64,000 bases of DNA, from assembly GCA_964517685.1 (NCBI GenBank), contig CAZFCF010000001.1:345458-409457 (forward strand), read 5' to 3'. The notes under the pieces are model-generated. The model saw only the letters and a program-made list of their open reading frames with translations. It was not told the DNA's origin and did no database searches. Shown here piece by piece: positions 29,568 through 58,152 of the stretch; positions within the stretch are counted from its first letter, which is position 1; every line of letters starts with the position of its first letter. The translations under genes were made by a program, and so were the position numbers. The stretch comes from an uncultured Gammaproteobacteria bacterium. GTDB lineage: Bacteria; Cyanobacteriota; Vampirovibrionia; LMEP-6097.

Positions 29568-30380
29568 ATGGCAACAAAAAACGCAGTAAATAACACAGGA
29601 ATAACTCCTTTAATAAATGTTATAGAGCAAGCTGCTAAAGAAGCTCATTCTAATCCTGTGGATTCGACTATTACTGATCCTAGTTCTTCTACTTCTGCTC
29701 CTTTTAATCAACTTTTTACCAAGAGTATTTCTATGGCTAATGAACTTCTTTCCTCTCCTTTCTCAAACGAGAGTAACATGACTGTAACAGAAAATATTGT
29801 TAATGGAATTACGGCACTTGGTTATAAAGCTGCGGGACAAATTTCTTCAGTACTAAACAATGTTAGCCTCACACTTGGAAACACAATAAGAAAAAAACTG
29901 CAAAACGAAGCAAGAGAAACTTTAATCACAACTCTTAACGATCCTAGTGTGCAAATTGACTGTAAACCAATATACAAGAAGGGTTCAATTCCAGTAAGTA
30001 AATTCTTTGGATATCCAATACAGAGAGTTCCCACAACTCTTACTCTTAAGACTCAAGATCAAAAAATGCGCACTTATACAATATGGCTTGAAATTGAAAA
30101 TCCAGAAACAGAAGGTATAATTAGTAATTGGTCAAACATAGAAAATATTCAACTATTAAAAGTAGAACAAGATTTGATTACGGATTCTTCTGGTTTAAAT
30201 GGAAATAACCTTAAACTTGAGATAGGGGTAGTTCCACCATCTCCACCGCCGCCGCCGCCAAAACCTGGCGAACGAACTCAATTATACTATCCAGACCCTT
30301 TTGATCAAGAACTTTTAGATTGCCTCAACAAAAAAGATATTTTGAATAAAGCTTGGAAAGCAGCTCTTGGCTATTCTTAA
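29568..30380 (+). CDS. Hypothetical proline-rich protein, 270 aa.
   Basis: Contains VVPPSPPPPPPKPGE. No TM segment. Ser/Thr/Asn-rich N-terminus. Confidence 0.45.
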   Translation: MATKNAVNNTGITPLINVIEQAAKEAHSNPVDSTITDPSSSTSAPFNQLFTKSISMANELLSSPFSNESNMTVTENIVNGITALGYKAAGQISSVLNNVSLTLGNTIRKKLQNEARETLITTLNDPSVQIDCKPIYKKGSIPVSKFFGYPIQRVPTTLTLKTQDQKMRTYTIWLEIENPETEGIISNWSNIENIQLLKVEQDLITDSSGLNGNNLKLEIGVVPPSPPPPPPKPGERTQLYYPDPFDQELLDCLNKKDILNKAWKAALGYS

Positions 30381-30525: not shown

Positions 30526-32004
30526 TTGACATTACGTCGCGATTCAGCTATTATCTCGAGGGTGCAGGTCAGATCACTATTCAAACCTTTTTACTATGCT
30601 CCAGACAGCGAAGCTACAAGTGGAGCTGGGGCAGAACCACCACCAGAAAGTAATTTTAATAAAAAGCTTGCAGCCAAAGTCAAACCTAACCCAAATCTGC
30701 AATTAAAGTTAGCAGTAATATCTTTCCGTCAAAAAACTTCTGCTTTGTATGAAGAAGCATTAGATCCTGACGACCCTGTGGGCACTTTATATAAAAAGAA
30801 TAAAACTAAAGTTGACCTAGAGCAATTAGCAGAAGAAGTAAAAAAACTTATTGAACAAGGTGCAGATCCTAATTTTCAAATCAAAGGAAGATTTTTACTG
30901 GGTTTTCTATGTGAAATTTACGATCACCTAAATTCCATATCTGATTTTGGTCCAGAAGCAAAATCACTTAACGATGTCTTTAAAGAATTAGTTATTAGCT
31001 TAGTAGAATCAGGAGCCAACTTAGCCAATATTGAGTGGAGATGGCGAGATCATGAATCATCCTATAATCCCATATTATCGATATTTAATCATTCCGAGGA
31101 TTTCAATAATTTAGAAAAGCTTCTATTAATTAACTCAACTGCTCAAAGTGTTTTAGATCAAACAACATTACTACATCAAGTCATTAAAATTTACTCACCA
31201 AGGGATAAAACATCTGATTACAACGATAAATTTGCAAAGATAGTTGAGGCAATGATTATGAATGGTGCAGATCCAGATTCAAGGAATGCAGATGGTGATT
31301 CAGCTAAAGATGCGGCTCTTGGACTTGATCACTGCTCCACTGCAATTAAAAAAGCTCTCGGTATACAAGATTGTCTACCTAATCTTTATGAACTTTATCA
31401 GAAAGGTGATTTTGATGATGAGCTCTTGGAAAGAAGTCATCCTGATGATCTTATTACTAATGATGTAAGTAACTCTGTAATTTATTTGATGACTAGTAAA
31501 GGAGATATAGAAAATTTAAAAAAAATTTTAAAGCCAGCTAAAATAAATTTTTCAAATAATCCAGAATTTTGGACTAGGATATTGCGCGAAGCATTGGACA
31601 CGTTACGTCCATCCTCTCGTGGTGAAAATGCAATAGAAGTAATAATGTTTTTTCTAAATAATGGAGTCAAACCAGATTACCTTATATCTAATCGCTTTTT
31701 TACTCTTATAACAGATATAAGGTTATTAGGTAGCATTAGACCATTACCACAAGAATTTTTAGATAAAATTATAGAAACATCTCGCTATTTAAGTGATATT
31801 AACCTTAAAGAACTACGTGAATTTATTGAAAAAAAATATCATTTAAGTAATGATAAAGCTCTTTTGAAAAAATTCCCAAGAGCTACACCTGAGAATATGG
31901 ACGAATTAAAAAGGTTATATAATCAATATATTGTAAATCCAGAGAAGCCTGAGAACTTAACGAACCTCAATATACACCTGCATTTTATTAAAAATAGAGA
32001 TTAA
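30526..32004 (+). CDS. Ankyrin-repeat protein, 492 aa.
   Basis: Several ANK-like units: LIEQGADPNFQIKGRFLLGFLCEI, LVESGANLANIE, MIMNGADPDSRNADGDSAKDAALG, FLNNGVKPDYL. Confidence 0.6.
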   Translation: MTLRRDSAIISRVQVRSLFKPFYYAPDSEATSGAGAEPPPESNFNKKLAAKVKPNPNLQLKLAVISFRQKTSALYEEALDPDDPVGTLYKKNKTKVDLEQLAEEVKKLIEQGADPNFQIKGRFLLGFLCEIYDHLNSISDFGPEAKSLNDVFKELVISLVESGANLANIEWRWRDHESSYNPILSIFNHSEDFNNLEKLLLINSTAQSVLDQTTLLHQVIKIYSPRDKTSDYNDKFAKIVEAMIMNGADPDSRNADGDSAKDAALGLDHCSTAIKKALGIQDCLPNLYELYQKGDFDDELLERSHPDDLITNDVSNSVIYLMTSKGDIENLKKILKPAKINFSNNPEFWTRILREALDTLRPSSRGENAIEVIMFFLNNGVKPDYLISNRFFTLITDIRLLGSIRPLPQEFLDKIIETSRYLSDINLKELREFIEKKYHLSNDKALLKKFPRATPENMDELKRLYNQYIVNPEKPENLTNLNIHLHFIKNRD

Positions 32005-32040: not shown

Positions 32041-32106
32041 GGATTGCCACGTCGGACTTCGTCCTCCTCGCAATGACATGGATCCTTACGCTTCGCTCAG
32101 GATGGT
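32041..32106. repeat. RPE-like element, right half, at the junction of the ankyrin-gene insertion.
   Basis: ggattgccacgtcggacttcgtcctcctcgcaatgacatggatccttacgcttcgctcaggatgg. The last 30 nt are identical to the ddl insert at 41133-41163. Confidence 0.7.
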
Positions 32107-39330: not shown

Positions 39331-40353
39331 TTACGCGAAGCTGTAATATTCTGCTAGATTATAGTCTTTTTGAATCTTAGTAAAATCTATAAATTTGCGA
39401 CTTTGTTCGTAATTCTCAGCAGCTTCTTTAGTTGGAAGTTCACAGACATTAGCAGATTTACTAAACTTCTCTACTGTAAAAGCTTCTTGAATAGCTGCTT
39501 TGATACCTGATGTCTTACTGTTTTCTGTAATTGATTTAAAGAACCTAAATTGCCTCAAGAGATTCTCTAATTTATAAATTTCTACTTCAAGATCATGTTG
39601 TTGTTTTTCATTTGGTACTTCATAATTTATTTTACTGCGCTCTTCATAACAACTCCCTAATTGGTAATCTATTAAATAAGCTAATTGACCTAGCCTTTTA
39701 TTTATGAGAGACCCTAAATCATTTTCATTTTCTCTTAGAAGTTTACTTTTATTAGATTGAACAATGTTTTTTAATTCTTTTGCAGCCTTATCACTTTTTT
39801 CTTTCAAAAGATTTTGCAAAGCCGAGAACAATATTCTTTCACGTAAATCTATAGTCACTTTATTTGGACTATGTAGAGAACCAAAGAACCTTGTGAGCAT
39901 AGGTATTCTTTGATTAGCTAAAGCTAAATTTAGATGTGTTTTAACATCCAGTTCCCCATCCAAAAATTTTCTCTCAGGTGCATTTGAATTAATCACTGGT
40001 CTAGATTCAGCTCTATCAACAGCTTTTGCAGAACCTTGTTCTAAATTAGAAACTTCTCCCAGAAGTTTAGGTCGTATAGACTTCCATTGTTGATACAAAG
40101 ACTTGAGTTCTTGTCTTAAATTTCTAAAGAAACCAGGTTGCTTAATTAAGTCAAACTGGTTGTTTATAGTTTTGATGAACGTAGGTAATTTGTGTTGCTC
40201 TTCTGAACTTAATGTCCTTAACTCACCTCTCTTGTAGCCAGAGAATATCTTTTGAGCATTAGGAATAGTCATTCTTTGCAAACTGTCTAGTTCCTTTAAT
40301 CCTCCATAAACAAAGTTAAGGGCATGGGTTATTTGGGTAGTAGTGTGGACCAT
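39331..40353 (-). CDS. Hypothetical protein, 340 aa.
   Basis: ORF track. Helical, charged, no TM segment, no recognisable motif. Confidence 0.4.
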   Translation of the reverse strand: MVHTTTQITHALNFVYGGLKELDSLQRMTIPNAQKIFSGYKRGELRTLSSEEQHKLPTFIKTINNQFDLIKQPGFFRNLRQELKSLYQQWKSIRPKLLGEVSNLEQGSAKAVDRAESRPVINSNAPERKFLDGELDVKTHLNLALANQRIPMLTRFFGSLHSPNKVTIDLRERILFSALQNLLKEKSDKAAKELKNIVQSNKSKLLRENENDLGSLINKRLGQLAYLIDYQLGSCYEERSKINYEVPNEKQQHDLEVEIYKLENLLRQFRFFKSITENSKTSGIKAAIQEAFTVEKFSKSANVCELPTKEAAENYEQSRKFIDFTKIQKDYNLAEYYSFA

Positions 40354-44463: not shown

Positions 44464-45189
44464 ATGATGAACAAAAAAACAATGCCACAAAAACTTCTTG
44501 CAATAGTGCCCGCTGCCGGCACTGGCAGCCGCATGAATAGTGATACGCCAAAACAATTTATTGAGATCAATGGCAAACCAATTCTCATCATTACTCTTGA
44601 AACCCTTATAAACACTGGATTTTTCGAGAAAATTATCATCCCTACAATTGATATAAATTACAGCAAAGAAATCATTCACAAGTTTCTAGCAGAGCATGAA
44701 AATTCCTTAATAGTATGCAGTGGTGGTAAAACGCGTCAAGAAAGCGTTTACAAGGCTTTACAAGAAGCAAAGAAATTTGCTATTGAAACTCAGCTGACTT
44801 TGGTGCACGATGCTGCGCGAGCATTAATTGATCAAGAAACAATCACTAATGTAATCGATAAAGCTATAGAAACTGGCGCTGCAAGCGCTGCAAGGCCAGT
44901 AACAGATACTCTAAAACTTAGTCGTTTGCAAAATTCAGACTTTATAATCGAAAAAAATATCTCTCGCGAAAATCTTTGGACAATGCAAACACCACAAGTT
45001 TTCAAATCATCTCTTTTGTATGAGGCACATCAAAAAGCTCATGAAGAAAATTTCTCAGGAACAGATTGTTGTGCACTTGTAGAAAATCTCGGACAAGAAA
45101 TTTATTTAGTAGAAAGCCCTTTGACTAATATCAAAATTACAACCCAAGAGGATATTAGTTTTGCGAAGGTCGTATTTTATCAAGGTTAG
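44464..45189 (+). CDS. ispD: 2-C-methyl-D-erythritol 4-phosphate cytidylyltransferase.
   Basis: LLAIVPAAGTGSRMNSDTPKQFIEINGKPIL. Confidence 0.85.
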   Translation: MMNKKTMPQKLLAIVPAAGTGSRMNSDTPKQFIEINGKPILIITLETLINTGFFEKIIIPTIDINYSKEIIHKFLAEHENSLIVCSGGKTRQESVYKALQEAKKFAIETQLTLVHDAARALIDQETITNVIDKAIETGAASAARPVTDTLKLSRLQNSDFIIEKNISRENLWTMQTPQVFKSSLLYEAHQKAHEENFSGTDCCALVENLGQEIYLVESPLTNIKITTQEDISFAKVVFYQG

Positions 45190-48097
45190 CATTAATAAAA
45201 TTTTCAAAAGCACGAGAAAAAGCACCATATTCATCGTCCATATGGTCACGGTTTATATTATTGGCAAGGAGAATCCAATCGGTTCTCATATCTCTAAATC
45301 CTCTCATTATTGAAATCTCATTATCATATGTTGCATTAAATTTATTAGGATCTATTTGTTTTATGTCCAATCCTCGAAGTTTAACAACAGCTTCAATAAC
45401 AATAGCTTTTAAAGCTTTGTCCATATCAGAAGAATGAATTTTACTTCTTATCTCCGCAAGATTTGTATGAAACTTATATTTTTCTTCTGCTTTTGGCGGC
45501 GGAGAGACTATTGAATCATCTTTAGCAAGAGCAGTGATAGTAAAAAATAGTTGGCTTGCAAGAGAGTCTATAAGCTTAATTTCTTTTTTAACTAAAGTTG
45601 CTTTAGCTTCTCTTGGATCTGCTGCTGAACCTTCTCTTCTGAAGAATGCTCCATACTCCAATAATGCTGTTTTATAATTACTAAAAGTATCTCTAAAATC
45701 ATTTAATATAGTTAACCCGCTTCGCTGACCTTTAGGTAATTTCAAATCTATTATTTTTTTGTCTTTAAGAAAATCTATTAAATTAGAATAAAATACTCCA
45801 TGATTTTTAGATTTTTCAATTAAATCCTTGATACTAGGCTTAAGATGCGATTTATCATCTGCCTGCTTTGCAATTGATTTAGATACTTTCTTTTCCTCAA
45901 CAACATCGGCAATCATGCTTCTTACTGCCTTTTCATCAAACTTTGCATAATATGGACCATCATTCTTGAATTCTTCTAAAGCAAAGCTGAATCCTTTCTT
46001 ATTGAGCGGCTCCTGTGTCGGTGGTAATTGTTGTACTGATTTTTCAGAGACAGAAGATGCTGGTACTGCTGCTGTTTGCTCATTTGGTTTCACTGAGTTC
46101 TCTTCTATTTTTCTAATACGTTGATTAATATATTCTTCAAATTTATTTTTAAAATTCACAAAAGCTTGATCCTTTTCAAAATGATTACTCTTAATAAAAT
46201 TTTTCAAGGCACCGAGTGGCACAGACCATGATAAGTCACTGCCTATTATTTCTTCAGCCAATTTTCCTGTTTCTGAATCTGTTTGAGCTGTGCCTTCACT
46301 CCTTCCTTTTATTTGATGTGCTGCTTCTCTAACAAGTTTTCTTAATATGAAATCCTCTTTTTTAATTCCTCCTTTAATTTCTCCATCTTTAATCATTGCA
46401 ATCGATAGCTCTAAGCTTGTAGGATTAAAATGTGCTTTATAGCCTGAAGTTGTGGTAGTACTCACATTTTCAGGTGCTGGTTCTTCAGCTACTTTTACTT
46501 TATTTGTACCTTGTCCAGGTTTATTATTACGTAAAGTAAAAACCAAATCTTTTTTTTGCTTTTCTAGATTTGATGGCAATTCATCATGAATTTTATTTAT
46601 TTGATCGTGTATAAAATTTGTATCCCCAACAGATTCCATTTTGTTGTCGTCATCTTCTAACTTATAAGTAATTGAAGGTTGAGACTTAGAATCATCTGGA
46701 TATCGAGTTTCTATAACAAGTGTTTTTGGCCCTACTCGATTAGCTAGATAATAATGATTTACACTCACATCTTTAACAACTTGTGATAAATCTAATTTTA
46801 ATTTGACCGATGACTTACCATCAACTAAATTCTGCGAACCTGCTTCAATATCAGTTAGATAGGGAAGTAATTCAAGAATACGGTCAAGATCTTGAAAGTC
46901 TCTCAATATGTGTGAAAGATGTCGACCGTCGGGTTCTTCTAACGGTTGCACAGAAGTCATTCCAAGAGGAAGTATCTCTTGTGTTTCAAGCTTTTCATCG
47001 CGTAGATTTTCAAAAAGTTTTCTTTGTTTAGAATCCGATGGCAAAGCTTGTAAAATAGTATTTAAAGCTTGATTATCATTATTTTCTAGAGACCAGCAGC
47101 CCCTAACCTCCCTACCATTTCTACCTCTACATGCAAAGGTAATAAACTGTTTATCACTAATCATTTCTGTTTTTATTACAACAACTTGTTTACCAATATT
47201 AGACAATAAATCTAACTTTAAAGATATAGAATTTTTATCTTCTCCTTTATCAACTGATTCAATATAAGGTATAAGTGCAAGAAAATCTTCTAATTTACGG
47301 TTTTCCAAAAGTTTATGTTCAAAATTATCCCAAAGGTCTTTTGCAATTTTTGGATCTATTGGCTTTGCTTTACTTTGCTTAATTGCAGTAGGTAATAAAT
47401 TACTAAACTGTTTTCTAATTTGAGTTGGTAAACTTCCTAGAATTTTCGAAAGAACGTTTATCGGAAGAGTATACTCCAAGCCATTGATACCAAACTTAAT
47501 CACCTTTTCGTTAATTCCAATCTCTATCGGTAATTGATATGCATTGATATTTTTTGGCAATGTTGCTTCCAGTGAAAAAACTGCTAATAAACCTTTGTAA
47601 TCTTCCGGCTCAGGTAAAGAATCTAGAGTAGAATTTTCTTGAGGATACTTTTTTTCTACCTTAACAACATAAGGCAGCAATCTTTTCAAATCCTCAAGTC
47701 CTCCAGTTGTGCCCATCATTAATTTAGTGATGGAAGATTCAAGTTTTTCTTTTTTACTACGACGTGATGCTGCAAAAACGAGACCACCACCACTTAATAA
47801 AGTACTAAGTGCAATATATAAATTTTTGTCATATAGAATTTTATTGATTTGATCAGCCACTATTGCTGTATCTTCAATTGTTGTTTCTTCAATCGTAGTT
47901 GCTGGAATTTTTCTAATATCAATATACTCTTCACCACCATCACCTATAAAGTCTGGCTTCAAAGGCATTTCAGCTTTTTTGGTTATCGTATTAGTTGTAT
48001 TATTTTTAGAAGGCTCAACTAAATCATGAACAGTGTAAGCTCCAAAGCCTGTTAAGCTTAGCCCAGTGAATGTAACTATATTTTTCAGGAAGCTCAT
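45155..48097 (-). CDS. Large hypothetical protein, 980 aa, with an N-terminal hydrophobic segment and internal ~100-aa repeats.
   Basis: Repeated block L(E/D)(D/R)(L/F/I)(K/L)(R/A/E)L(L/I)PY(V/I/L)... recurs at least three times, followed by a K/E-rich C-terminus. Confidence 0.45.
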   Translation of the reverse strand: MSFLKNIVTFTGLSLTGFGAYTVHDLVEPSKNNTTNTITKKAEMPLKPDFIGDGGEEYIDIRKIPATTIEETTIEDTAIVADQINKILYDKNLYIALSTLLSGGGLVFAASRRSKKEKLESSITKLMMGTTGGLEDLKRLLPYVVKVEKKYPQENSTLDSLPEPEDYKGLLAVFSLEATLPKNINAYQLPIEIGINEKVIKFGINGLEYTLPINVLSKILGSLPTQIRKQFSNLLPTAIKQSKAKPIDPKIAKDLWDNFEHKLLENRKLEDFLALIPYIESVDKGEDKNSISLKLDLLSNIGKQVVVIKTEMISDKQFITFACRGRNGREVRGCWSLENNDNQALNTILQALPSDSKQRKLFENLRDEKLETQEILPLGMTSVQPLEEPDGRHLSHILRDFQDLDRILELLPYLTDIEAGSQNLVDGKSSVKLKLDLSQVVKDVSVNHYYLANRVGPKTLVIETRYPDDSKSQPSITYKLEDDDNKMESVGDTNFIHDQINKIHDELPSNLEKQKKDLVFTLRNNKPGQGTNKVKVAEEPAPENVSTTTTSGYKAHFNPTSLELSIAMIKDGEIKGGIKKEDFILRKLVREAAHQIKGRSEGTAQTDSETGKLAEEIIGSDLSWSVPLGALKNFIKSNHFEKDQAFVNFKNKFEEYINQRIRKIEENSVKPNEQTAAVPASSVSEKSVQQLPPTQEPLNKKGFSFALEEFKNDGPYYAKFDEKAVRSMIADVVEEKKVSKSIAKQADDKSHLKPSIKDLIEKSKNHGVFYSNLIDFLKDKKIIDLKLPKGQRSGLTILNDFRDTFSNYKTALLEYGAFFRREGSAADPREAKATLVKKEIKLIDSLASQLFFTITALAKDDSIVSPPPKAEEKYKFHTNLAEIRSKIHSSDMDKALKAIVIEAVVKLRGLDIKQIDPNKFNATYDNEISIMRGFRDMRTDWILLANNINRDHMDDEYGAFSRAFENFINANLDKIRPSQN

Positions 48098-48131
48098 ATT
48101 ATCTATACTATTATAAAGTATTGAAATACTA

Positions 48132-51041
48132 TTATTTTACATTTGTTGGAGTTTTTATAATTGTATAATCGCCATCCACTTTCTTAAAGAGTTCACGACC
48201 AATAGTTTTTAATAATGATTGAATCTCAATAAAAATTGGATAGTATTGATTATTGTTTTTTTGTTCTGATTTTTTGGTTAAATAATTTAAATAGGGATAA
48301 CCTTCACCTAATTTCACCCCAACACTTTGATTCTGCAATACAGCTAATTCTTTTGCTTTATCTAAGCCATTAATAGCCTCGTTCTTATTATTTGCTTGAG
48401 CTGTTTGTACTACAATCTCATCTTTATTTTTTGCATAAATTCTCAATGCAACTGCACTTGTAGAATTATGGTAAAGCAATTCAATACTGCCATCATCTGT
48501 TTTAATTCTATCTACCTTAGAATTTGCTAGCTCATGTTTACCAAATAATTTTTCTTTAGCTTCATTTGATAATTTCAATTCACTTAGTTTTAAAGCTTCA
48601 TCAATTGTTTTAGTTTCTTTGGAAACAGGTGGTGTTGAAGTTTTGATTGGCTTTGTAGTTTCTTGCTTAGGTGATTTTTTCACTTCAGGAATTGCTAGTT
48701 CCAATTTAGAACCAAGCTGTTTTAAATCTACTTTTCCTAATTTAATTCTTATTGGAGCTGGCTCTGTTTCTTTCGCTGGCTGTTCTTTAGTTTCTTTTTC
48801 CTGCTCAGGTGATTCTTTCATTTCTTCGATTACTATTGGTTCAAAAGTTTTGTTAGACTGACTCAAATCTTTATTTAATGAAATTCTGATTGGAGTTAAA
48901 TCCACAATTGATTCTGGTGTTGCCGCAGCACCTCTATTATTTTCTTTTGTCTCGGAAGGATTTTTAGCAACAGTAGACTTATCCATATAAAAATCCTTAC
49001 CTTTGAAGTCATAAGTTGTATTTGTCGGTCTTGAAGGAGTAGTCTCAACCTCAGAAGTAGTCCTTTTAATATCAGTAATATCCCTAACTAATGGCTTCCT
49101 TGGAGTACGCTCAGCAAGAGTATTTGATTTAAAAATTTGACCTTCTAAATTTAGCGCAGTAGCTATTGGTGGAGCTATCTTATTAGCACCCTTCATAAAC
49201 CCACTAACATTAGTTTTTACAGCCTTGCCAAATTCAACTGCTTCAGTCGCAAAGTCTAAACCTTGCAGCAGCATTGATTTTGCAGTTTCATTTATTTCAT
49301 TCTTTAATTGAGTTTTTAAATCTTCATTTAAATCACTCAAAGCTTTTATGCCGACAGGAAGCATCATGAGACCATCTGCTAGACCTTTTGTACCTGAAAT
49401 TACTAAAGGTCCCAAATTTGGTATATCAATAGGTTCATCAGCGATAGTTACAGGCAAAGCCGGTGGCTCTGGTCTTTCTTCAACAATATTAATTGGTAAT
49501 TCTGGTGGCGGCGGTCCTACTTCTGCTTCAGGATTCTTCATTGGCTTTACTACTATTGGAGCCGTCTTATTTTCTGACTCTGGTGCAAAAGTTACTGTTG
49601 TAGGTATTTCATTTTCATCAGCAACCATTGCTTCAATTGGTGAATTATTTTCATATTGCTTGAGAATATGATTGATGCCTTCTTTTACAGTTTCATCACT
49701 GCTGCTTTTCATTTCCTCTAAAAAATTACGAGCAATTTCTGTTATATTTTTATCTGCAAAAATAATATCCTTAGAAGATGAATCAATAACAAATTCTTCA
49801 GCTAACTCTGCACTCTTTAAAGCAGAATCTTCATCTGTATCATAACTTGCACGTATTGCTATAGTTCCAGGATCTTTATAGCTAATTTTTAAAGCTAATG
49901 CTTTTATATCATCAAGTTCTCCATTATCACTAATCAAAGTATGTGGATGAACCAGATCAAGACTATTAGTTTCTTTATTAAAATTTGATTTCTCTTTTAT
50001 ATTACTACCATTTAAGTTCATGCACCATAGCGCACCAGGCGTTCTCAAATTGTAACCATTATATTTATCTCTTTTAAAACTTGGTATAAATTCTTTTTCT
50101 ACTTTTGGCGCAGATTCTGGTGGACTTGGCATTGCTTCTGCTGCTTTCTTTTCCGAGTCTCTGATCATTGTTTTTAATTTTTCGCTTGCTTCAGGTTTTT
50201 CAGGAACAGTGTCGTTAAACCATACTTTAGCTTCAGTAGCAAAAAGATTTTTACCTTTGTTCTCCTCACGACCCAACCAGTCCAGAGCTGATTTATAAGG
50301 TACATAGCTAAAGCCATCACTACCATCCTTTTTAGAATAGTGATCAATTAAATACCACTCATTATCTATTTTTGCCTGATATAAAAAAGAATTTACTTCT
50401 TCCGGTTTTGATCCAAAGTTCTCCGGCTTAGATTTTGTTAACTCAGTAATAACTGGTTCACTTTCCACTTTTGCATCTTCTATTGGAGTTACTGGCTTTT
50501 CTGTTACCGGCATCTCAGGCTTTGACTCAATACCTTTTTCTTCAGTACCTGATGGTGCATTCATATAATCAATACTTTGCTTCAAGCTTGCTGGTACTAC
50601 TGTCCATCCAAGAGTCTTTGAGTGTGCTGGATCAAAAATCGATCCACCATTCTTTCTAATTTCATTTGCTTTAGATTCTTTAATCATTTTTACGCTTGGA
50701 TCAACACCCGCTCTAGTATCGCGTAAAACTAAATATGACTCACCATTAGTACGAGCTCGATAAAATTTCAAACCTTGATAATTTTCTTTATCTAAACTCG
50801 AATCAAATTCTTTTGGACTAAGTTCTTTTGTATCAAATGTTGTCCATGGAGCTGGACTAACTATTGAATTAGAATCATTAGTTGTATTTGGCGTAAAACT
50901 GTCTTTCGGTGCAGCACAACTTGGAGCCTGTGTTTGTACAGGAGCACAAGGCTGAGATTTATGATATTTATGTTTTGCCTGCATTACAGGTGCATAAAAA
51001 GCTTGTTGCTGAATAAATTGCTGTCTACATTTTTTCCCCAT
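48132..51041 (-). CDS. Large hypothetical protein, 969 aa, Pro/Glu/Lys/Thr-rich, with a GPPPPELP proline motif.
   Basis: ORF track. Low-complexity and P-rich linkers. No TM segment. Confidence 0.45.
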   Translation of the reverse strand: MGKKCRQQFIQQQAFYAPVMQAKHKYHKSQPCAPVQTQAPSCAAPKDSFTPNTTNDSNSIVSPAPWTTFDTKELSPKEFDSSLDKENYQGLKFYRARTNGESYLVLRDTRAGVDPSVKMIKESKANEIRKNGGSIFDPAHSKTLGWTVVPASLKQSIDYMNAPSGTEEKGIESKPEMPVTEKPVTPIEDAKVESEPVITELTKSKPENFGSKPEEVNSFLYQAKIDNEWYLIDHYSKKDGSDGFSYVPYKSALDWLGREENKGKNLFATEAKVWFNDTVPEKPEASEKLKTMIRDSEKKAAEAMPSPPESAPKVEKEFIPSFKRDKYNGYNLRTPGALWCMNLNGSNIKEKSNFNKETNSLDLVHPHTLISDNGELDDIKALALKISYKDPGTIAIRASYDTDEDSALKSAELAEEFVIDSSSKDIIFADKNITEIARNFLEEMKSSSDETVKEGINHILKQYENNSPIEAMVADENEIPTTVTFAPESENKTAPIVVKPMKNPEAEVGPPPPELPINIVEERPEPPALPVTIADEPIDIPNLGPLVISGTKGLADGLMMLPVGIKALSDLNEDLKTQLKNEINETAKSMLLQGLDFATEAVEFGKAVKTNVSGFMKGANKIAPPIATALNLEGQIFKSNTLAERTPRKPLVRDITDIKRTTSEVETTPSRPTNTTYDFKGKDFYMDKSTVAKNPSETKENNRGAAATPESIVDLTPIRISLNKDLSQSNKTFEPIVIEEMKESPEQEKETKEQPAKETEPAPIRIKLGKVDLKQLGSKLELAIPEVKKSPKQETTKPIKTSTPPVSKETKTIDEALKLSELKLSNEAKEKLFGKHELANSKVDRIKTDDGSIELLYHNSTSAVALRIYAKNKDEIVVQTAQANNKNEAINGLDKAKELAVLQNQSVGVKLGEGYPYLNYLTKKSEQKNNNQYYPIFIEIQSLLKTIGRELFKKVDGDYTIIKTPTNVK

Positions 51042-51185
51042 GATTTAATTACCTTCCGTTTTATCGAATCCTCACTTGATATTAAAAGGATAATGATAGG
51101 GAAATTTTGACAGGTAAACCCTTAATCAGGTATTAACTATTAAGTATCAACTTGGAGTTCTGTCTTCTAAAAAGCTTATGGTAGG

Positions 51186-51222
51186 CTGGATTGCCACGCC
51201 GCTTCGCGGCTCGCAATGACGA
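51186..51222. repeat. RPE-like fragment, right half, intergenic.
   Basis: ctggattgccacgccgcttcgcggctcgcaatgacga. Confidence 0.6.
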
Positions 51223-51259
51223 TTATTGTCCTTAAATTAACACCCATGCTCCCGATGGA

Positions 51260-52279
51260 CTATATCCAAAATATAGGATCTAGCCCTGGGATCGCGGCAC
51301 CATCAATGATCTGATTAATTTGTTTTCTGACTTTATTTTTATAAGCTTCTTGTAAGGGATGCGATTCAGGCATGCAGGCTTCTAAAGAAAACTTGCCAGC
51401 CCATTCATCATTTTCCATATCTTCAGCACCCAAATTACGAGCAGCCATTTCACTACAGTGATTCATTAGATTTTGTGCAAAGACAATTTCATTAGTAGGT
51501 CTTAGAGCCGCAGTGGCAGTTTCTTTAGCAAGCGATATAGTCCAACACACAGTTCCATCATCAAATCTTTCTACTGAGTTGAGATATTTACTTTCACCCC
51601 GACCACCAAGGTGAGCAATCTGTCTCAGGTTGCGATATTGATCCACAGTGGTTTCATTAATTACAATTGGTTCTGTTTTATCAAAAGAGCAATGTTTCAC
51701 ACTAATAATATGATGAGCCTCATCATATTGAATAACTTGCACAAAATTTGTTTGCAAGGTTTTTTCTGATGGATAAGCGATAAGTACTTGATTTGCAGCT
51801 TCATTTCTTTTAAACCAAACCTGGAAATCTCTTTTATCAGGTCTTGTAATATCAAGCATTTGATTAAAAGCAAATTCACTTAAATGAGAATATTGCGCAT
51901 GAATCTTGGATAATCGTTGCTTAGTCATAGAACAGATTCTAGGCTGAAACCCTTTCTCTTCCAGGCTTTCAATGTTACCCAAATTAACGTAAGGCTCAAG
52001 ATTACGAGAAGGAATAAGTTCTAGTGTTTGTTTAAACTCTGGAGAGTTATGCTGCGGAAAGACTCCGACTCTTTTATCTTCTTGTGGAAAAGCAATATTT
52101 ACTTTACTTGCCTGACCAGGCTTAGTCATCAAAACTAACTCAGTAAGATTTTCTGGATCAAGTCGCTTACCGCTTTTACTGGAATTTTTATATGCATAAG
52201 GACCACCAACATAATTAAACTTATGTTCAAGTCTTACACTCTCAACTGCTTTTGCTTCTTCTTTTTGTTCTTCATCCAT
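51260..52279 (-). CDS. Hypothetical protein, 340 aa, paralog of the 52343-53446 product.
   Basis: Shared blocks with its neighbour: RVG(V/R)FPQHN, RDF(Q/D)VW, PIVINETT/PLVINQT, NS(V/L)ERFDDGT, ARNLGAE, GKFS(L/P)EAC(M/V)PESH, VRKQ(I/V)NQI(I/V)DGA(A/C)IPGL(D/T)PIF. Confidence 0.5.
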   Translation of the reverse strand: MDEEQKEEAKAVESVRLEHKFNYVGGPYAYKNSSKSGKRLDPENLTELVLMTKPGQASKVNIAFPQEDKRVGVFPQHNSPEFKQTLELIPSRNLEPYVNLGNIESLEEKGFQPRICSMTKQRLSKIHAQYSHLSEFAFNQMLDITRPDKRDFQVWFKRNEAANQVLIAYPSEKTLQTNFVQVIQYDEAHHIISVKHCSFDKTEPIVINETTVDQYRNLRQIAHLGGRGESKYLNSVERFDDGTVCWTISLAKETATAALRPTNEIVFAQNLMNHCSEMAARNLGAEDMENDEWAGKFSLEACMPESHPLQEAYKNKVRKQINQIIDGAAIPGLDPIFWI

Positions 52280-52342
52280 CTCTATGCAGAGAGTATCTTT
52301 TAGAAATAATTCTATGTCTAAAGAAACCTACCTTAAGTTAGC

Positions 52343-53446
52343 TTAGCCTGTAAAACTAGTATTTTCAAGCGTAGAGATTGGGAAGATTGGCGTTAAACCA
52401 GGTATACAAGCTCCATCAACAATTTGATTAACTTGTTTTCTTACTGAAGTTTTGTACTCTCTTCTAACTATGTATTTATCATGGGATTCAGGCACACAAG
52501 CCTCAGGAGAGAACTTACCAATCCAAGACTGAGTTTTAGTATCAATACCTTCTGCACCTAAATTTCTTGCTGAGAACTCTGTAAGTTCTTTATTCAGACC
52601 AGGCAATAGAATTACTTCTCCATCATCTTTCAAGACTGCTGAACCAACTACATTCTTACCAAACTTAAAGTCAGAAGTAGTCCACATGATAGTTCCATCA
52701 TCAAATCTCTCCAAAGAATTCACAAAAGAATTAGAAGTAGATCCCGTAACGCCCACATGAGCAATATTGCGAGTACGACCATCTTTATCAATGCAGGTTT
52801 GATTTATTACCAGTGGAATACTCGTCTCATAAACCACATGCCTTAAATCACAGACAGCACCTGATTCATCAAGGAATACACTTTGCATAAATTGAATCAA
52901 AAAGTTATGAGGATTAATATAGGCAATCATAATTTCACCTTCAACTTCTCTAACCCAAACATCAAAATCTCTTTTTTCTACTTCACTTTGCAAACAAAGC
53001 ATCTCTTTAAAACATTCAGAACTTAAATGAGCAAACTGGTTTGCTAAATTCGCAATTTTTTTCTTGGTAAGAGTGGCTTTATGTGGCTTAAAGCCAGCCT
53101 CTTCTAAACTAAATACAGAATGCAGGTCACGATATTTATCCAGCGTGAGAGAAGCTAAAACTTGAATTCCAGTTTGAAAAGCACCTGGAGTATTGTGTTG
53201 AGGAAATCTACCTACTCTTTGATCGCGAGGTGGTACCTTTAATTCTAATAATCTTGCTTGTCCAGGAGATGCATAAACTATTCTTGACTGAGAAGGTAAG
53301 TTTTTGTTTTTATTTGATTTAGAAGTCTTACTTAAGTAATTAAAATTATGCTTGATATTCAATGCTTGGCCAGGAGCAGTATCTAATACCTCCTGAGCAA
53401 GTTTAATTGCATCATCTATAATTGCCGATTGCGACATCTGACCCAA
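52343..53446 (-). CDS. Hypothetical protein, 367 aa, paralog of the 51260-52279 product.
   Basis: See the paralog entry. Confidence 0.5.
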   Translation of the reverse strand: MGQMSQSAIIDDAIKLAQEVLDTAPGQALNIKHNFNYLSKTSKSNKNKNLPSQSRIVYASPGQARLLELKVPPRDQRVGRFPQHNTPGAFQTGIQVLASLTLDKYRDLHSVFSLEEAGFKPHKATLTKKKIANLANQFAHLSSECFKEMLCLQSEVEKRDFDVWVREVEGEIMIAYINPHNFLIQFMQSVFLDESGAVCDLRHVVYETSIPLVINQTCIDKDGRTRNIAHVGVTGSTSNSFVNSLERFDDGTIMWTTSDFKFGKNVVGSAVLKDDGEVILLPGLNKELTEFSARNLGAEGIDTKTQSWIGKFSPEACVPESHDKYIVRREYKTSVRKQVNQIVDGACIPGLTPIFPISTLENTSFTG

Positions 53447-53508: not shown

Positions 53509-54345
53509 TTATTTCTTCCCATCAATGATTTTCTTTTTGTTTTGGGGTAAATAATTTTCTTGGCTAATAATAGATTTGCCAGTTTTTGATTCTAGATCTT
53601 TTCTGGCTTTACCAGCTACTCCACCACCGGTTTTGGCAGCCTCTTTGTTTTGCACAAAACCATGTGCATCATTTTTTCTAGTAATCTCTGTGGTTGCAGC
53701 TTCGCCAAGCATTGAAAAAATTAACTCTAAATCAGTCATGTGATCTCTTAAATTTTCGCGCTTGAGATTTTTGTGTTTTTTATATTCACTTGGAGTCATT
53801 CCAAAAGTTGCTCTGGATATTTCTGCAGTAAGAATTGAATATTCTTTTCCTTCTTTGACATCACGTTGCTTCCATTCATCTGTAAGTTCTTCACGAATGG
53901 CAATAGAGCGCATACGCTTTTCTATCCAATTCTCTGAATAACCTTTAGCTTTATAAATTTCTCTTGCTCTTTGACTAGCAAGCTCAGGATTTTCAATTTC
54001 TTTAACTCGGTCATATCCAACTTGAGCAAGCCAAAGTTTTAGTGGTTCTGCTTTTGGCGATGGAATTGACTGAATAATTCGAAGCATCGTTTCAGTATTA
54101 GCACAATCAGTTTTGCGATATTTGCCATCAATTGCTAATAATTTCAACTGGTTACAATTTGTAACCGTTTGATTTGAACCTTCATTCATTAACCTATTTT
54201 TTAGGACTTTCCAGTAATTTCTAGCGTCTTCACTAACTCCTAAAACATCAATTACATCTACAACAGAAAACCACCATTCATCATTATGTAAGGTTTTACG
54301 GATTTCCTTTTCTTCAAAAATGGCTAATTTATATTCTTCATTCAT
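53509..54345 (-). CDS. DinD-like (DNA-damage-inducible protein D) / Bro-N family protein.
   Basis: C-terminal RDHMTDLELIFSMLGEAATTEITRKNDAHGF...KTGGGVAGKARKDLE aligns with E. coli DinD (DHMGSTELAANLFRATQTEEKLKRDGV...GRKVRQTIQELGG). Confidence 0.55.
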   Translation of the reverse strand: MNEEYKLAIFEEKEIRKTLHNDEWWFSVVDVIDVLGVSEDARNYWKVLKNRLMNEGSNQTVTNCNQLKLLAIDGKYRKTDCANTETMLRIIQSIPSPKAEPLKLWLAQVGYDRVKEIENPELASQRAREIYKAKGYSENWIEKRMRSIAIREELTDEWKQRDVKEGKEYSILTAEISRATFGMTPSEYKKHKNLKRENLRDHMTDLELIFSMLGEAATTEITRKNDAHGFVQNKEAAKTGGGVAGKARKDLESKTGKSIISQENYLPQNKKKIIDGKK

Positions 54346-54453: not shown

Positions 54454-57363
54454 TTATGAGATTGCCATCAATTCATCTTCAAAGATTTTTTTCTTATTAC
54501 TAACTTCATCCAGATTAGCTTTCAGTTCTTCTATCTTTTCAGGAGAAGCATTCTTAATAAAGCCATCAGAGCTAAGTCTTGAGTTTAGAACTTTAATATC
54601 AGCATTAAGTTTCTCAATTTGCTTTTTGATTTTCTCTGAGAGCTTATTGAGATCTACAATGCCACTTAAAGGAACTATAACTTCAATTCCAGAAATTTGA
54701 TTTTTGAAAGCAGGCTTAGCATCTACAGTATTAGACTCAAAACTTACTTTACTTAATTTCACTGGATTCTTTATATATTCACTAAAGTTCTCAAGCTTAG
54801 ATTTCAAAGCCTGATCTTTAATTACTAAAATCACCTCAAAATTCACTGACCATGGGATATCTAGAGACTGACGAATATTACGCAAGTTACCAATTAGATC
54901 TTTAATAAGTTCTACAGTGCTATTAGCTTCTGAGAAATTAAAATTCTCTGCTTTAGGATAGCTTGCAAAACAAATTGATTTAGTCTCAGCATTATCAATC
55001 GCAGAAAAATCATACTTAGCTTTTAGCTCTTGCCAAATCTCTTCAGTGATAAATGGAGCAATTGGATGTAAGGCTCTTAAAGACGCTTCAAGAATATAAA
55101 AGAGAATTTGTTTTTGGCTAGATTTATCAGCACTATCTATCTTAGTAAATTCAATATACCAATCACAAAAATCGAACCAAGTAAACTCATAGATTAGCTT
55201 TTGGATCTTGGTTAGATCATATCCCTTAAATGCTTCATCAATTTCAGCAAGCACTTTAGAGAATTTAGTTAAAACCCATTTATCAGTTTCAAGTAAGTTA
55301 CTAGTGTCTAATTTGCTCATGACTGCAGGCTTAAAAGTTCCACCGTCATCTAGCTTAGTCATCACAAACTTAGTTGCATTAAAAAGCTTGTTACAGAATT
55401 TACGATACTGCTCAAATGTATCAGAGAACCAAGCTTCGTTCTGATCTTTACGACCAGGGAATTTTACATCTTGTTGTCCATGAATACCGACGCTGGCATA
55501 CCAAAGACGACTAGCATCAGCGCCATATTTACTAACCATCTCTAAAGGATCAATAGCATTGCCTTTAGACTTACTCATACGTTTACCATCAGGTGTTTGC
55601 ACAACTGGATGAATCAATATATCTGAGAAAGGCTGCTTACCATTTTCAAAATATATACTTGAGAAAATCATTCGCGTCACCCAGAGATTAATGATCTCTC
55701 TTGCAGTTGCAAGCACATCAGTCGGGTAGAATTTTTCAAAAACTTTTTGATCGAAGTCTGTAGTCTCAAGCTCACCTTTAGCAGACTTCAAGGTCTCAAA
55801 CGGCCAGAGTGCACTACTAAACCAAGTATCAAGTACATCATCATCTTGCCTATGATCTAGTTCTCTAGCTTTTTCAGCAGCATAGTATCTAGTCACCAAG
55901 CCTGATTCATCATCGGCAGGGTTTTCTTTATCGTTAAAAGGATTAGGAGTACCAGCATTCGTCTCATAATAGAAAACTGGAATTCTATGTCCCCACCAAA
56001 TCTGACGGCTTACACACCAGTCTTGAATATTTTCAAGCCAGTTTTTAAAAATCACATTATATCTTTCTGGAGTGAATTGCGATTTACCAGAAGCAACTAA
56101 ATCGAGTGACTTTTGAGCTAGACCTTGCATTGCTAAGTACCACTGTTCACTTAGATAAGGTTCGATTTCAGTATTGCAACGATCGTGAAGGTCTTTTTCT
56201 TGGTCGTATTCTGTAGTTTGCACAAGTACGTCATTGCGAGCAGAGCGTGTCATTGCGAGCGGAGCGAAGCAATCTCCCTGCATAGACTGGATCGCCACGC
56301 CCTGCTGCGCAGGACTCGCCATGACATTTTTGTTGTCACTGTGACCAAGTAAAGCAAGAACCTTCTCTCTTGCAGCATACCTATCAAGCCCAGTCAACCC
56401 AAGGCTTTCAGGGATCTCTGGGCAAGCTTTCATCTTGGCTTGTTTATCCATAATTATTGGTTTATCTAAGCCATGTTTTTTACCAATCTCGAAATCATTA
56501 GCATCATGTGCTGGAGTAACTTTTAGGGCACCAGTACCAAAGTCGGTCTTCACATGCTCATCAAGAATCACAGGAATTTCTTTATTGCTAAGTGGGATTA
56601 AAACCTTAACTGAATCAGGAGCGTTTTTAATTTGTTTAATCAAACCAGAGAATCTCTCATCATTAGGATTAATCGCAACTGCCACATCACCAAACATAGT
56701 CTCTGGACGGGTTGTAGCGACAGTAATTGATTCATTAGAATCTTTGATTTGGTATTTAATTTCGTAAAGTTTTTTCTTAGTTGTTTCTTTTGCAATTTCC
56801 AAATCCGAAAGTGAAGTAAGACATTTAGGACACCAATTCACTACACGATTACCGCGATAAATTAGTCCATCATTGAAATATTTAATAAAAGCATTCTGCA
56901 CCGCTGAAGCGTAGTGGTCATCCATGGTGTAGCGAATACGTTTATAATCTGGACTAAAGCCCAAGACTTTCATTTGCTCAATGATTTTATTACCGTAGTC
57001 TTCTTTCCAAGCTTTCACTCGCTTGAGAAATTCTTCTCTACCTAGATCTTCTTTTCTTTTGTGTTCGGTTTGCTTGAGATTTTTCTCAACCACCAGCTGA
57101 GTACCGATACCAGCATGATCAGTACCAATTTGCCAAAGCACATCTTTACCAAGCATACGGTTGTAACGAATTAGAATATCTTGGATAGTGCCACCCAAGG
57201 CATGACCCATATGTAACTCGCCAGTCACATTCGGTGGTGGCAAAGCAATAGAAAAACTTTCAGTATTTTCACGGACAGTGGTATCAAAAATACCTTGCTC
57301 AAGCCAATTTTTCATCCATTTGCTTTCGATTTCTATTGGTGAATATTGTTTGCTTGCGTCCAT
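54454..57363 (-). CDS. valS: Valine--tRNA ligase, with an in-frame GC-rich insertion.
   Basis: PPPNVTGELHMGHALG and KMSKSKGN, plus a C-terminal coiled coil. The element at 56229-56326 encodes ...NKNVMASPAQQGVAIQSMQGDCFAPLAMTRSARNDV... Confidence 0.9.
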   Translation of the reverse strand: MDASKQYSPIEIESKWMKNWLEQGIFDTTVRENTESFSIALPPPNVTGELHMGHALGGTIQDILIRYNRMLGKDVLWQIGTDHAGIGTQLVVEKNLKQTEHKRKEDLGREEFLKRVKAWKEDYGNKIIEQMKVLGFSPDYKRIRYTMDDHYASAVQNAFIKYFNDGLIYRGNRVVNWCPKCLTSLSDLEIAKETTKKKLYEIKYQIKDSNESITVATTRPETMFGDVAVAINPNDERFSGLIKQIKNAPDSVKVLIPLSNKEIPVILDEHVKTDFGTGALKVTPAHDANDFEIGKKHGLDKPIIMDKQAKMKACPEIPESLGLTGLDRYAAREKVLALLGHSDNKNVMASPAQQGVAIQSMQGDCFAPLAMTRSARNDVLVQTTEYDQEKDLHDRCNTEIEPYLSEQWYLAMQGLAQKSLDLVASGKSQFTPERYNVIFKNWLENIQDWCVSRQIWWGHRIPVFYYETNAGTPNPFNDKENPADDESGLVTRYYAAEKARELDHRQDDDVLDTWFSSALWPFETLKSAKGELETTDFDQKVFEKFYPTDVLATAREIINLWVTRMIFSSIYFENGKQPFSDILIHPVVQTPDGKRMSKSKGNAIDPLEMVSKYGADASRLWYASVGIHGQQDVKFPGRKDQNEAWFSDTFEQYRKFCNKLFNATKFVMTKLDDGGTFKPAVMSKLDTSNLLETDKWVLTKFSKVLAEIDEAFKGYDLTKIQKLIYEFTWFDFCDWYIEFTKIDSADKSSQKQILFYILEASLRALHPIAPFITEEIWQELKAKYDFSAIDNAETKSICFASYPKAENFNFSEANSTVELIKDLIGNLRNIRQSLDIPWSVNFEVILVIKDQALKSKLENFSEYIKNPVKLSKVSFESNTVDAKPAFKNQISGIEVIVPLSGIVDLNKLSEKIKKQIEKLNADIKVLNSRLSSDGFIKNASPEKIEELKANLDEVSNKKKIFEDELMAIS
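56229..56326. repeat. RPE-like element inside valS, in frame, with a duplicated left end.
   Basis: cgtcattgcgagcagagcgtgtcattgcgagcggagcgaagcaatctccc...gactggatcgccacgccctgctgcgcaggactcgccatgaca. Confidence 0.8.
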
Positions 57364-57527: not shown

Positions 57528-57785
57528 TTGGACAAAAAATATACTAAAATTCTCAGGAAAATCAAAGAGAATCCAAAAGCTGTAACAGTCACTGAACTCA
57601 TAAAGCTAATGGAATTGATCGGTTTTTCTTATAGAAGAGGTTCTAAGAATCATTATATTTTTTACTATCAATCATTAACTATTGGAGTTGCGCCTCCTCA
57701 TCCTGGCAAACATATAAAACCAATTTATGTAAGAGAATGTCTAAAGGCAATTAATGAGGTAATAGAAAATGACCAAAAAAACTAA
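57528..57785 (+). CDS. hicA: HicA-family mRNA interferase toxin.
   Basis: 85 aa; HicA (YcfA-like) C-terminal block HPGKHIKPIYVRECLK. Confidence 0.6.
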   Translation: MDKKYTKILRKIKENPKAVTVTELIKLMELIGFSYRRGSKNHYIFYYQSLTIGVAPPHPGKHIKPIYVRECLKAINEVIENDQKN

Positions 57786-58152
57786 AGAACAAAATTTCAA
57801 ACAAGAAATAAAAAACTATCTAGAGCTTCCATATAGCTTCACGGTTGCCAAAGATACTGATGAAGACGAAGAGGAATACTTTTATGCTTTAGTCAATGAA
57901 TTACCTGGTTGCGTTTCAGACGGCAAAACCCCAGAAGAAGCTTTGAAGAACATTAAAGATGCAATGTACGATTGGATTGAAACAGCTTTAATTAATGGGG
58001 AGAGAATTCCTGAACCTAATAAATGCAGCGGTAAATTTTCAGTAAGAATTCCACCTTCTTTGCATCAAGATCTTATTAATAAAAGTAATCGTGAAGGCGT
58101 AAGTATTAACCAACTAGTTACTTCTGCTATTTCAAGAGCTGTGGGTTTTTAG
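57769..58152 (+). CDS. hicB: HicB-family antitoxin.
   Basis: Overlaps hicA by 17 nt. HicB fold motif LPGCVSDGKTPEEALKNIKDA and a C-terminal RHH-like GVSINQLVTSAISRAVG. Confidence 0.6.
   Translation: MTKKTKEQNFKQEIKNYLELPYSFTVAKDTDEDEEEYFYALVNELPGCVSDGKTPEEALKNIKDAMYDWIETALINGERIPEPNKCSGKFSVRIPPSLHQDLINKSNREGVSINQLVTSAISRAVGF

Follow-up and report, generated by a model that had tools for sequence, protein, structure and literature searches.

Between valS and ispD, in the 64,000-nucleotide stretch of contig CAZFCF010000001.1 considered here (the window), four consecutive genes are found on the minus strand, and the question raised by this locus is whether they belong together. A first-pass annotation took the four for a single candidate effector island, preceded by a gene of the DinD/Bro-N type. 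We think it rather probable that the block is instead composed of three unrelated layers, namely a core gene pair (g4-g3), a replacement islet (g2-g1) with a probable role in interaction with cells or phage, and a Bro-N gene that was inserted independently. We have high confidence in the structural and evolutionary description of the block. The genes concerned and their two conserved anchors are as follows.

44464-45189, plus strand: ispD, conserved, anchoring the block on the right and convergent with g3, here also with g1
45155-48097, minus strand: g1, an open reading frame (ORF) of 980 amino acids
48132-51041, minus strand: g2, an ORF of 969 amino acids
51260-52279, minus strand: g3, an ORF of 339 amino acids, paralog of g4 and convergent to ispD
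52343-53446, minus strand: g4, an ORF of 367 amino acids from a TTG start, downstream of valS
53509-54345, minus strand: Bro-N/DinD-like gene of 278 amino acids with a PF02498 match, at the valS/g4 junction
54454-57363, minus strand: valS, conserved, anchoring the syntenic block on the left

The four ORFs are present where they had been annotated, in an unbroken minus-strand run between valS/Bro-N and ispD, with the length of g3 corrected from 340 to 339 amino acids. In public gene calls g4 is 364 amino acids long and starts from an ATG three codons later (53437) instead of the TTG, while at the other end of the block the last 11 codons of g1 overlap the 3′ end of ispD in antisense. The proposed paralogy of g3 and g4 is borne out by 38% identity over ~340 amino acids (E = 1e-81). 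The four genes were also rightly described as lacking a recognisable housekeeping identity, as g1-g4 gave zero significant matches in Pfam, NCBIfam, PHROGs and PADLOC; PDB sequence searches with g1 and g2 were empty as well. Identical proteins recur in several Logan and ENA assemblies.

Related genomes were collected by scanning one genome per GTDB species with a profile of the g3/g4 family, which gave 30 loci, and every ORF of these loci was blasted against the window proteins. The g3/g4 family itself comprises 101 homologs in the homolog search, falling into two identity tiers that are often found on one contig. In ~25 of the 30 species-level loci the gene order is valS-g4-g3-ispD (convergent)-xerC-oppC, followed by a gene for a 117-aa TPR-like protein, plsY and ddl. 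In the most distant genomes the pair is split, with g4 still positioned after valS (loci L004/L005) and g3 still facing ispD (L029-L037); the duplication that produced g3 and g4 is therefore ancient. Wherever both loci are visible, the genome has retained the two copies, JABSOS01 (L005 and L037) being an example, and this retention suggests that g3 and g4 may form a heteromer. Sequence conservation of the pair is of the same order as that of its neighbours: relative to L006, g4 is 52% and g3 54% identical, compared with 56% for ValS, 49% for IspD and 64% for XerC, and relative to L012 the values are 61% and 74%, compared with 53% for IspD, 77% for XerC and 67% for Ddl. Across the relatives, g3 orthologs are 48-74% identical.

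The first-pass annotation had proposed comparative genomics as a check on the island and had counted syntenic presence in free-living relatives as evidence against it. Synteny in relatives is what is observed for half of the block: because g4 and g3 are syntenic in ~25 species-level relatives and are conserved like ValS and IspD, the effector reading fails for these two genes, and an accessory islet is left for g2 and g1 only. g3 and g4 are core genes of the order, not effectors. Neither has a transmembrane segment or leader as judged by hydropathy, and no relative of the family was found in viral contigs; both proteins are probably soluble and cytoplasmic, at ~350 amino acids. An alignment of 55 family members contains 27 invariant columns, many of them His, Asp, Glu or Arg, and includes the motifs FPQHN, KRDF, ERFDDG, NLGAEG and DGAxIPGxxPIF. 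We take g3 and g4 to be a lineage-specific pair of housekeeping type, which possibly forms a heteromeric enzyme or scaffold.

An AlphaFold2 model generated from the g3/g4 alignment is confident, with a predicted local distance difference test (pLDDT) score of 84.3 and a predicted template modelling score of 0.76. It opens with a helix at the N-terminus, passes through a disordered linker (residues 31-54) and a few helices into an antiparallel meander of ~12 strands, and closes with a long C-terminal helix. A structure search with this model identified no structural neighbour and no significant propeller match. Its weak top matches fall among classes built from β-hairpin repeats (single Kelch blades, MORN repeats, YD/Rhs shells and OspA-like single-layer sheets), with which the model shares a long antiparallel β-meander. 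At the sequence level, profile positions 239-286 resemble a single Kelch-like blade (E = 8.8e-10 to a designed Kelch protein and E = 4e-4 to KLHL20). A Pfam scan of the 55 members gave no recurring family, and Kelch_1 was matched by one of them at E = 0.028. A Vezatin match, likewise in one of the 55, scored 20.3 bits, a value below the cutoff, and was taken as chance.

The second layer lies between g3 and ispD, where the window differs from its closest relatives. Its boundaries were placed by blastn against loci L025, L047 and L044, and they delimit a single feature.

45164-51263: variable cassette of 6.1 kb carrying g2 and g1, in place of ~218 base pairs (bp) of intergenic DNA in the empty-site haplotype

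Flanking DNA is 83-87% identical to the sister genomes; this similarity breaks off exactly at the g3 stop codon (51262) and is regained from 45164, a position within the last ~26 bp of ispD, and between the two breakpoints nothing is alignable. The genomes compared are otherwise close to the window. In the L025 sister, g3 is 94%, g4 93%, XerC 97%, OppC 97% and IspD 77% identical, and among close genomes with g3 at 93-97% and XerC at 97% identity the g3/ispD junction is polymorphic, with four haplotypes.

Window: genes of 969 and 980 amino acids
L025 and L047: genes of 782, 799 and 276 amino acids, the same in both
L046: a gene of 599 amino acids and one of at least 390 amino acids
L044 and L045: empty, with g3, 192 bp and ispD in succession

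The cassette is also absent from the more distant L012, where the gap between g3 and ispD is 16 bp, and g2 and g1 are missing from all but the closest relatives. Since the site is empty in a close relative, the two genes are dispensable. Their narrow distribution extends to the public record: among 5.8 billion proteins g1 and g2 each match only themselves, and an exhaustive phmmer search of 1.84 billion cluster representatives added one relative of g1, P0104, which is the 799-aa gene of L025 (E = 1.8e-8). No further relatives of g1 or g2 were recovered from IMG/VR, from JGI metagenomes (searched with protein patterns) or with a degenerate QAPSCAAPKD pattern, and a phmmer comparison of every ORF in 33 related loci with g1, g2 and the L025 alleles gave nothing beyond L025. 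Pfam, NCBIfam, PHROGs and PADLOC scans of the L025 and L046 cassette alleles gave no family. Upstream of the g2 start the element CCTGTCAAAA is common to the window and L025 cassettes, so that the cassette seems to bring its own upstream region; a promoter/terminator scan returned 38 sites, with 37.8 expected. We conclude that g2-g1 is a replacement-type flexible islet.

The alleles that occupy this site are only 25-45% identical in protein sequence, and they share different modules in each pairwise comparison. The 782-aa protein of L025 matches g2 at the N-terminus (residues 1-237, E = 5e-20) and the C-terminus (784-962, E = 1.7e-21) only, and the match of the 799-aa protein to g1 is limited to residues 70-293. 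In the 599-aa protein of L046, the first 290 residues resemble the L025 allele (40% identity), while residues 171-587 resemble the window allele (44% over 427 amino acids); the L046 fragment of at least 390 amino acids is 27% identical to g1. At the DNA level, similarity between the L046 and L047 alleles is limited to the first ~520 bp (73.5%), and similarity between L046 and the window cassette is limited to one block.

48649-49364, minus strand: g2 mosaic block (amino acids ~560-798), the sole DNA similarity to L046 within the cassette (blastn), 725 bp at 75% identity compared with 84% in the flank

Because the shared blocks differ from pair to pair, the cassette alleles are mosaics. In addition, each allele carries its own, different internal repeats.

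The age of these alleles can be gauged from synonymous sites. At residues shared by the window and L025, the identity of fourfold-degenerate sites is 61-79% for g3, g4, xerC and ispD (pooled 211/313 = 0.67), whereas it is 33/76 = 0.43 for those blocks of g1 and g2 that align confidently, close to the ~0.38 expected by chance (Fisher p = 1.8e-4 versus the flanks). Neutral decay at the divergence of the flanks (~0.45 at fourfold-degenerate sites, d4) would leave the cassette DNA alignable, and none of it is alignable. The synonymous divergence of the cassette is thus in excess of that of its surroundings, and chance-level synonymous identity together with unalignable DNA indicates that the alleles of the cassette predate the genomes in which they are found. 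Judged from these sequences, allele age points to recombination-driven replacement through the conserved flanks and to long-term keeping of divergent alleles. A gradient of divergence in ispD towards the cassette, as might be left by a recombination tract, was looked for and not seen, ispD being uniformly ~78% identical.

These same data bear on a further possibility, in which g1 and g2 diverge under relaxed selection, either as lineage-specific structural or "filler" proteins with little constraint on them or as genes in the course of being lost. Both proteins are repeat-rich, of low complexity and rich in Lys and Glu, their internal repeats differ allele by allele, one close relative has an empty site, and the single-sequence AlphaFold2 model of g1 is of very low confidence (pLDDT 35.5, unusable). 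Against such an origin, intact ORFs of 599-980 amino acids are kept in all three alleles in DNA of 33% guanine plus cytosine (GC), conservation is seen in both terminal domains of g2 and in residues 70-293 of g1 (E of 1e-16 to 1e-21), and the central block shared by two alleles retains ~44% protein identity over 427 amino acids and 75% DNA identity over 725 bp. Drift at a d4 of ~0.45 would, moreover, leave ~65-70% DNA identity, whereas no DNA similarity was found and synonymous sites are saturated. We regard relaxed selection as improbable.

The composition of the cassette is native. Analysis of GC content and codon usage, a further check proposed at first pass, revealed no foreign signature: the GC content of g1 and g2 is 0.33-0.34, their codon-usage distance of 0.106-0.126 lies within the core range of 0.08-0.16, and GC at third codon positions is also in the core range. 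The window contains no tRNA gene and no Rfam match, and the cassette has no flanking repeats. The adjacent tyrosine recombinase is XerC-like and is a syntenic core gene of all relatives. A horizontally acquired genomic island was rejected on these grounds, namely native composition and no tRNA, mobile integrase or flanking repeats.

Of the two cassette proteins, g1 has a hydrophobic leader at its N-terminus, a transmembrane-like segment and three repeats, and its C-terminal half is helical; two of these parts can be placed on the DNA as follows.

47765-47821, minus strand: g1 transmembrane-like segment (amino acids 93-111), LYIALSTLLSGGGLVFAAS, followed by RRSKKEK, with a Kyte-Doolittle 19-mer value of 1.59
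46463-47740, minus strand: g1 repeats, three tandem units of ~136 amino acids with L..[LI][LI]PY at amino acids 137, 273 and 408

The N-terminal hydrophobic segment noted in the first-pass annotation is real but modest, with its best stretch at residues 93-111. Of the repeats, the three units stand while the period of ~100 amino acids does not, being ~136 amino acids instead. By Smith-Waterman comparison the first and second repeats score 55 (z = 5.7) and the second and third score 72 (z = 8.8), values that 0/200 shuffles reach in either case; the first and third repeats taken alone are not significant against shuffles. The hydrophobic features are a property of the family, since all three g1-family N-termini have a leader and a second hydrophobic segment near residue 90-110. 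In the 799-aa homolog of L025 the transmembrane-like segments are at residues 8-26 and 89-107, and the leader of the L046 member resembles a signal peptide ending in AGA. By the positive-inside rule, g1 is most likely anchored in the inner membrane of the bacterium itself, with the large repeat part predicted to be cytoplasmic.

g2 is rich in Pro, Glu, Lys and Thr (K 11.2%, E 9.7%, P 7.4%, T 7.0%), in agreement with its original description, and it contains the GPPPPELP motif that had been pointed out.

49494-49517, minus strand: GPPPPELP motif of g2 (amino acids 509-516)

As the segment with this motif is gapped in the homolog from L025 and unmatched in that from L046, the motif does not count among the conserved features of the g2 family. 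What is conserved is an N-terminus of the form MG[KR][KR]CRQQ...QAPSCAAPKD[ST]F and a C-terminal domain, with a variable, mosaic middle in between. Over its first 46 residues g2 has zero acidic residues and an abundance of Gln, Pro, Ala, Ser and Lys, and this stretch is conserved throughout the three alleles. No hydrophobic segment or signal peptide was detected by hydropathy in the g2-family proteins, and we propose that g2 is a partly disordered, soluble partner of g1. Two other features were considered for g2 and set aside. The usual consensus for N-myristoylation disfavours Lys after Gly. Modification of the MGKKC... start was dropped for this reason, and nothing supports a eukaryotic site of action. 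A similarity between the C-terminus of g2 and the N-terminus of g4 (E = 0.002 in a database of five sequences) was treated as chance.

In other lineages the g3/ispD junction or the vicinity of g3 carries large genes that are unrelated to g1 and g2 and belong to recognisable families, as listed here.

L026, 9876-12092: a 739-aa pentapeptide-repeat protein at the g3/ispD junction (E = 5e-26)
L035, 7657-10344: an 896-aa ankyrin-repeat protein at the g3/ispD junction (Ank_2, E = 1.6e-8)
L041, 5549-7747: a 733-aa DUF1521 protein just upstream of g3 (E = 1.8e-13)

These genes speak for the original proposal in a narrowed form, in which g2, and perhaps g1, would enter a eukaryotic cell (host or prey) by secretion, for instance via the flagellar type III export apparatus or some other system, with arms-race evolution accounting for their divergence. 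Ankyrin and pentapeptide proteins occupy the same junction, and DUF1521, next to g3 in L041, is the autocleavage domain of NopE1/NopE2 and VIC_001052, proteins that are exported through the type III secretion system (T3SS) (PMC6506597). The acid-free, conserved first 46 residues of g2 would suit an export signal. Genes for FliF, FliH, FlgH, a Fic protein and a leader-bearing NIF/FCP1-like phosphatase are present in the window itself. Marine Caenarcaniphilales, the group to which the window belongs (see below), have been called putatively parasitic or predatory, a lifestyle that is not established (PMC7848738).

Several observations pull the other way. The window contains no dedicated gene for a T3SS or for a type IV or type VI secretion system, only the flagellar FliF, FliH and FlgH, and the leader and transmembrane segment of the g1 family followed by RRSKKEK fit retention in the bacterium's own inner membrane. 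In Pfam, NCBIfam and PHROG scans g1, g2 and their alleles are without a eukaryote-like or known effector domain, GPPPPELP is not conserved in homologs, the GC content and codon usage of the two genes are native, and the genes are dispensable, with the site empty in a close relative. Of the effector-like genes that had been cited from elsewhere in the window, the FCP1-like phosphatase is upheld (PF03031, E = 1.6e-10), while the 492-aa "ankyrin" protein has no Pfam match at E ≤ 0.01. The contents of the hot spot thus give circumstantial support to an interaction or effector role, and may equally reflect a convergent junction that simply tolerates insertions. Overall, secretion of g2 or g1 into a eukaryotic cell is a reading that we regard as possible but rather unlikely.

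The third layer is the Bro-N gene. Its assignment in the first-pass annotation was sound (PF02498, E = 1.9e-12, 48 bits against a cutoff of 25.6 bits), and it has full-length matches to the PADLOC candidate PDC-S13 (E = 6.7e-123) and to phrog_15286 (E = 6e-101). The 278-aa protein thereby shares the Bro-N domain with E. coli DinD/Bro-N proteins. The gene is absent from the valS/g4 junction in every examined relative locus that covers this junction, and in L044 an unrelated 174-aa ORFan is found in its place, which makes the valS/g4 junction a second variable spot. The Bro-N gene is a separate accessory insertion and is part of neither the core pair nor the cassette.

Its presence nevertheless invites the idea that g2-g1 is an anti-phage or abortive-infection module, in which a membrane-anchored sensor or effector and its partner would form an islet near Bro-N/PDC-S13. 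The presence/absence polymorphism and allele turnover of the cassette are as in defence islands, the Bro-N gene with its full-length PDC-S13 match (see above) is 2.4 kb away, and a HicA/HicB-like pair is positioned just past valS. Yet g1, g2 and their alleles have no PADLOC match, and they lack any catalytic domain, be it nuclease, ATPase, protease, TIR, SIR2 or another. Defence genes of known type tend to be exchanged as conserved units and do not usually persist as mosaics of 25-45% identity at a fixed locus. Moreover, the core pair g4-g3 stands between Bro-N and the cassette, and the insertion of Bro-N was an independent one. We give a dedicated defence role little credence, about as little as relaxed selection.

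A fragment of a palindromic element had been noted between g2 and g3, and it does belong to a repeat family.

51186-51222, plus strand: GC-rich half copy of a palindromic element, GGATTGCCACGCCGCTTCGCGGCTCGCAATGAC, between the g3 stop and the g2 start

The 9-mer core of the family, CGCAATGAC, occurs 8 times in the window compared with 0.16 expected. Aligned by eye, its members have the form GGATTGC..hairpin..CTCGCAATGAC and are GC-rich in a genome of 34% GC. Copies are found at 6534-6611, 11078-11086, 23795-23803, 32069-32077, 51186-51222 and 56230-56257, and at L046:46-82, upstream of g4. Those inside valS, leuS and comEC leave the reading frames uninterrupted; Rickettsia palindromic elements likewise sit within reading frames without interruption.

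Most of the weight that is left once secreted effectors, defence and filler have had their share goes to a broader, unspecified interaction with cells or phage, and a role of g2-g1 in strain-specific interaction with other organisms is, as far as sequence can tell, the most likely one. We propose that the islet occupies a "safe" convergent junction between g3 and ispD, and that g2 and g1 would always travel together with their own upstream region. The deeply diverged, module-shuffled alleles would be exchanged or lost by homologous recombination via the conserved flanks, and the resulting allele pattern may be the signature of diversifying or frequency-dependent selection. The interaction partner could be a host or prey cell, or phage.

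A number of points weigh against this interpretation. None of the four proteins has an assigned biochemical function, and the formation of a heteromer by g3 and g4 is purely inferred. The topology of g1 is derived from hydropathy only, with the window copy just below the usual transmembrane threshold. The synonymous comparison comprises 76 sites from alignments of 32-38% identity, in which chance-identical residues push the value towards chance; allowing for ~20% chance matches, the expected fourfold-site identity becomes ~0.61, compared with 0.43 observed. Low identity would also result if disordered, repeat-rich proteins were under weak constraint, but the excess synonymous divergence would then be left unexplained. 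As regards diversifying selection, synonymous sites are saturated and the alleles number only three.

The locus is not categorically new in kind, while the protein families themselves are undescribed. Replacement flexible genomic islands occupy a fixed locus with conserved flanks and hold divergent or alternative gene sets in close strains, the O-antigen and surface-glycosylation loci of marine bacteria being examples. The g2-g1 islet is similarly fixed between core genes, with sharp breakpoints at gene boundaries and with presence/absence and alternative alleles in near-identical backgrounds, and it too has native composition, no mobility genes and synonymous divergence above that of the flanks. 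It differs in that it has no glycosyltransferase or surface-biosynthesis enzyme, consists of two or three ORFans and has alleles that are homologous mosaics, not unrelated sets. Similarity can also be drawn to the eukaryote-like or T3SS-type effector repertoires of host-associated bacteria (ankyrin, pentapeptide, DUF1521/NopE and chlamydial Inc proteins), which like g1 and g2 are large, lineage-restricted and fast-diverging, but g1 and g2 carry none of their domains. As in Inc proteins, two hydrophobic segments are found in the N-terminal region of g1, but they are ~65 residues apart and form no tight bilobed hairpin.

The source of the window is a low-GC, flagellated, non-photosynthetic cyanobacterium of the Caenarcaniphilales (Vampirovibrionia/Melainabacteria). 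Some g4 homologs are found in metagenome-assembled genomes (MAGs) labelled Candidatus Caenarcaniphilales/Caenarcanales, Melainabacteria, Vampirovibrionia or Cyanobacteria, while about one third of the homologous genome loci are from MAGs labelled Gammaproteobacteria, Proteobacteria or "bacterium". We take the latter labels to be probable errors, since the gene order of these loci is that of the others. For the Caenarcaniphilales genome that was described first, flagella are reported to be absent, so the flagellar genes of the window may be notable. Other features of the window are the following.

1990-3501, plus strand: dnaA
7522-8196, plus strand: FlgH
8101-9066, minus strand: NIF/FCP1-like HAD phosphatase with an N-terminal hydrophobic leader (PF03031, E-value as above)
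13987-15483, minus strand: Fic-domain protein (PF02661, E = 9e-14)
16889-18208, minus strand: FliH, with a very long acidic C-terminal tail
18603-20366, minus strand: FliF
29568-30380, plus strand: 270-aa protein with a PPSPPPPPPKP run and no Pfam match
30526-32004, plus strand: the 492-aa protein called ankyrin at first pass
39331-40353, minus strand: 340-aa ORFan between ddl and bioB, with no Pfam, NCBIfam, PHROG or PADLOC match
57528-58152, plus strand: HicA/HicB-like overlapping pair (85 and 127 amino acids) just past valS, judged by eye from the sequence

Since dnaA is within the window, the region is near the replication origin. The 340-aa ORFan is missing from the syntenic L012, where ddl adjoins bioB, and it looks like a lineage-specific insertion. 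One or two large ORFs (831-1287 amino acids) are positioned directly upstream of valS in L015, L017 and L018; they match none of the window query proteins, and in phmmer comparisons with g1 and g2 they give E > 0.1. Large genes without a known family thus seem to be common around the conserved valS-ispD block.

More specific pictures of both gene pairs can be drawn, and we offer them as speculative. g2-g1 may be an unseen two-protein specificity module of putatively predatory or parasitic, non-photosynthetic cyanobacteria, consisting of a membrane-anchored g1 and an exported g2 with an acid-free N-terminal signal, in which balancing selection on ancient, recombining alleles would set the range of hosts, prey or phage. 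Separately, g3/g4 may represent a new fold and an order-specific, essential heteromeric enzyme.

At the level of the genome, the locus illustrates how the best conserved and the most variable parts may stand side by side in one series of "unknown" genes, which comparison with relatives alone separates. g3 and g4, being order-wide, confidently modelled and without sequence or structural relatives, are a clean target for the study of a lineage-specific function. The g2-g1 locus, dispensable, mosaic and hypervariable among near-identical genomes, would mark the strongest strain-level selection in the Caenarcaniphilales, and it provides a handle on the ecology of these uncultured bacteria, be it their host or prey range or the pressure exerted on them by phage.

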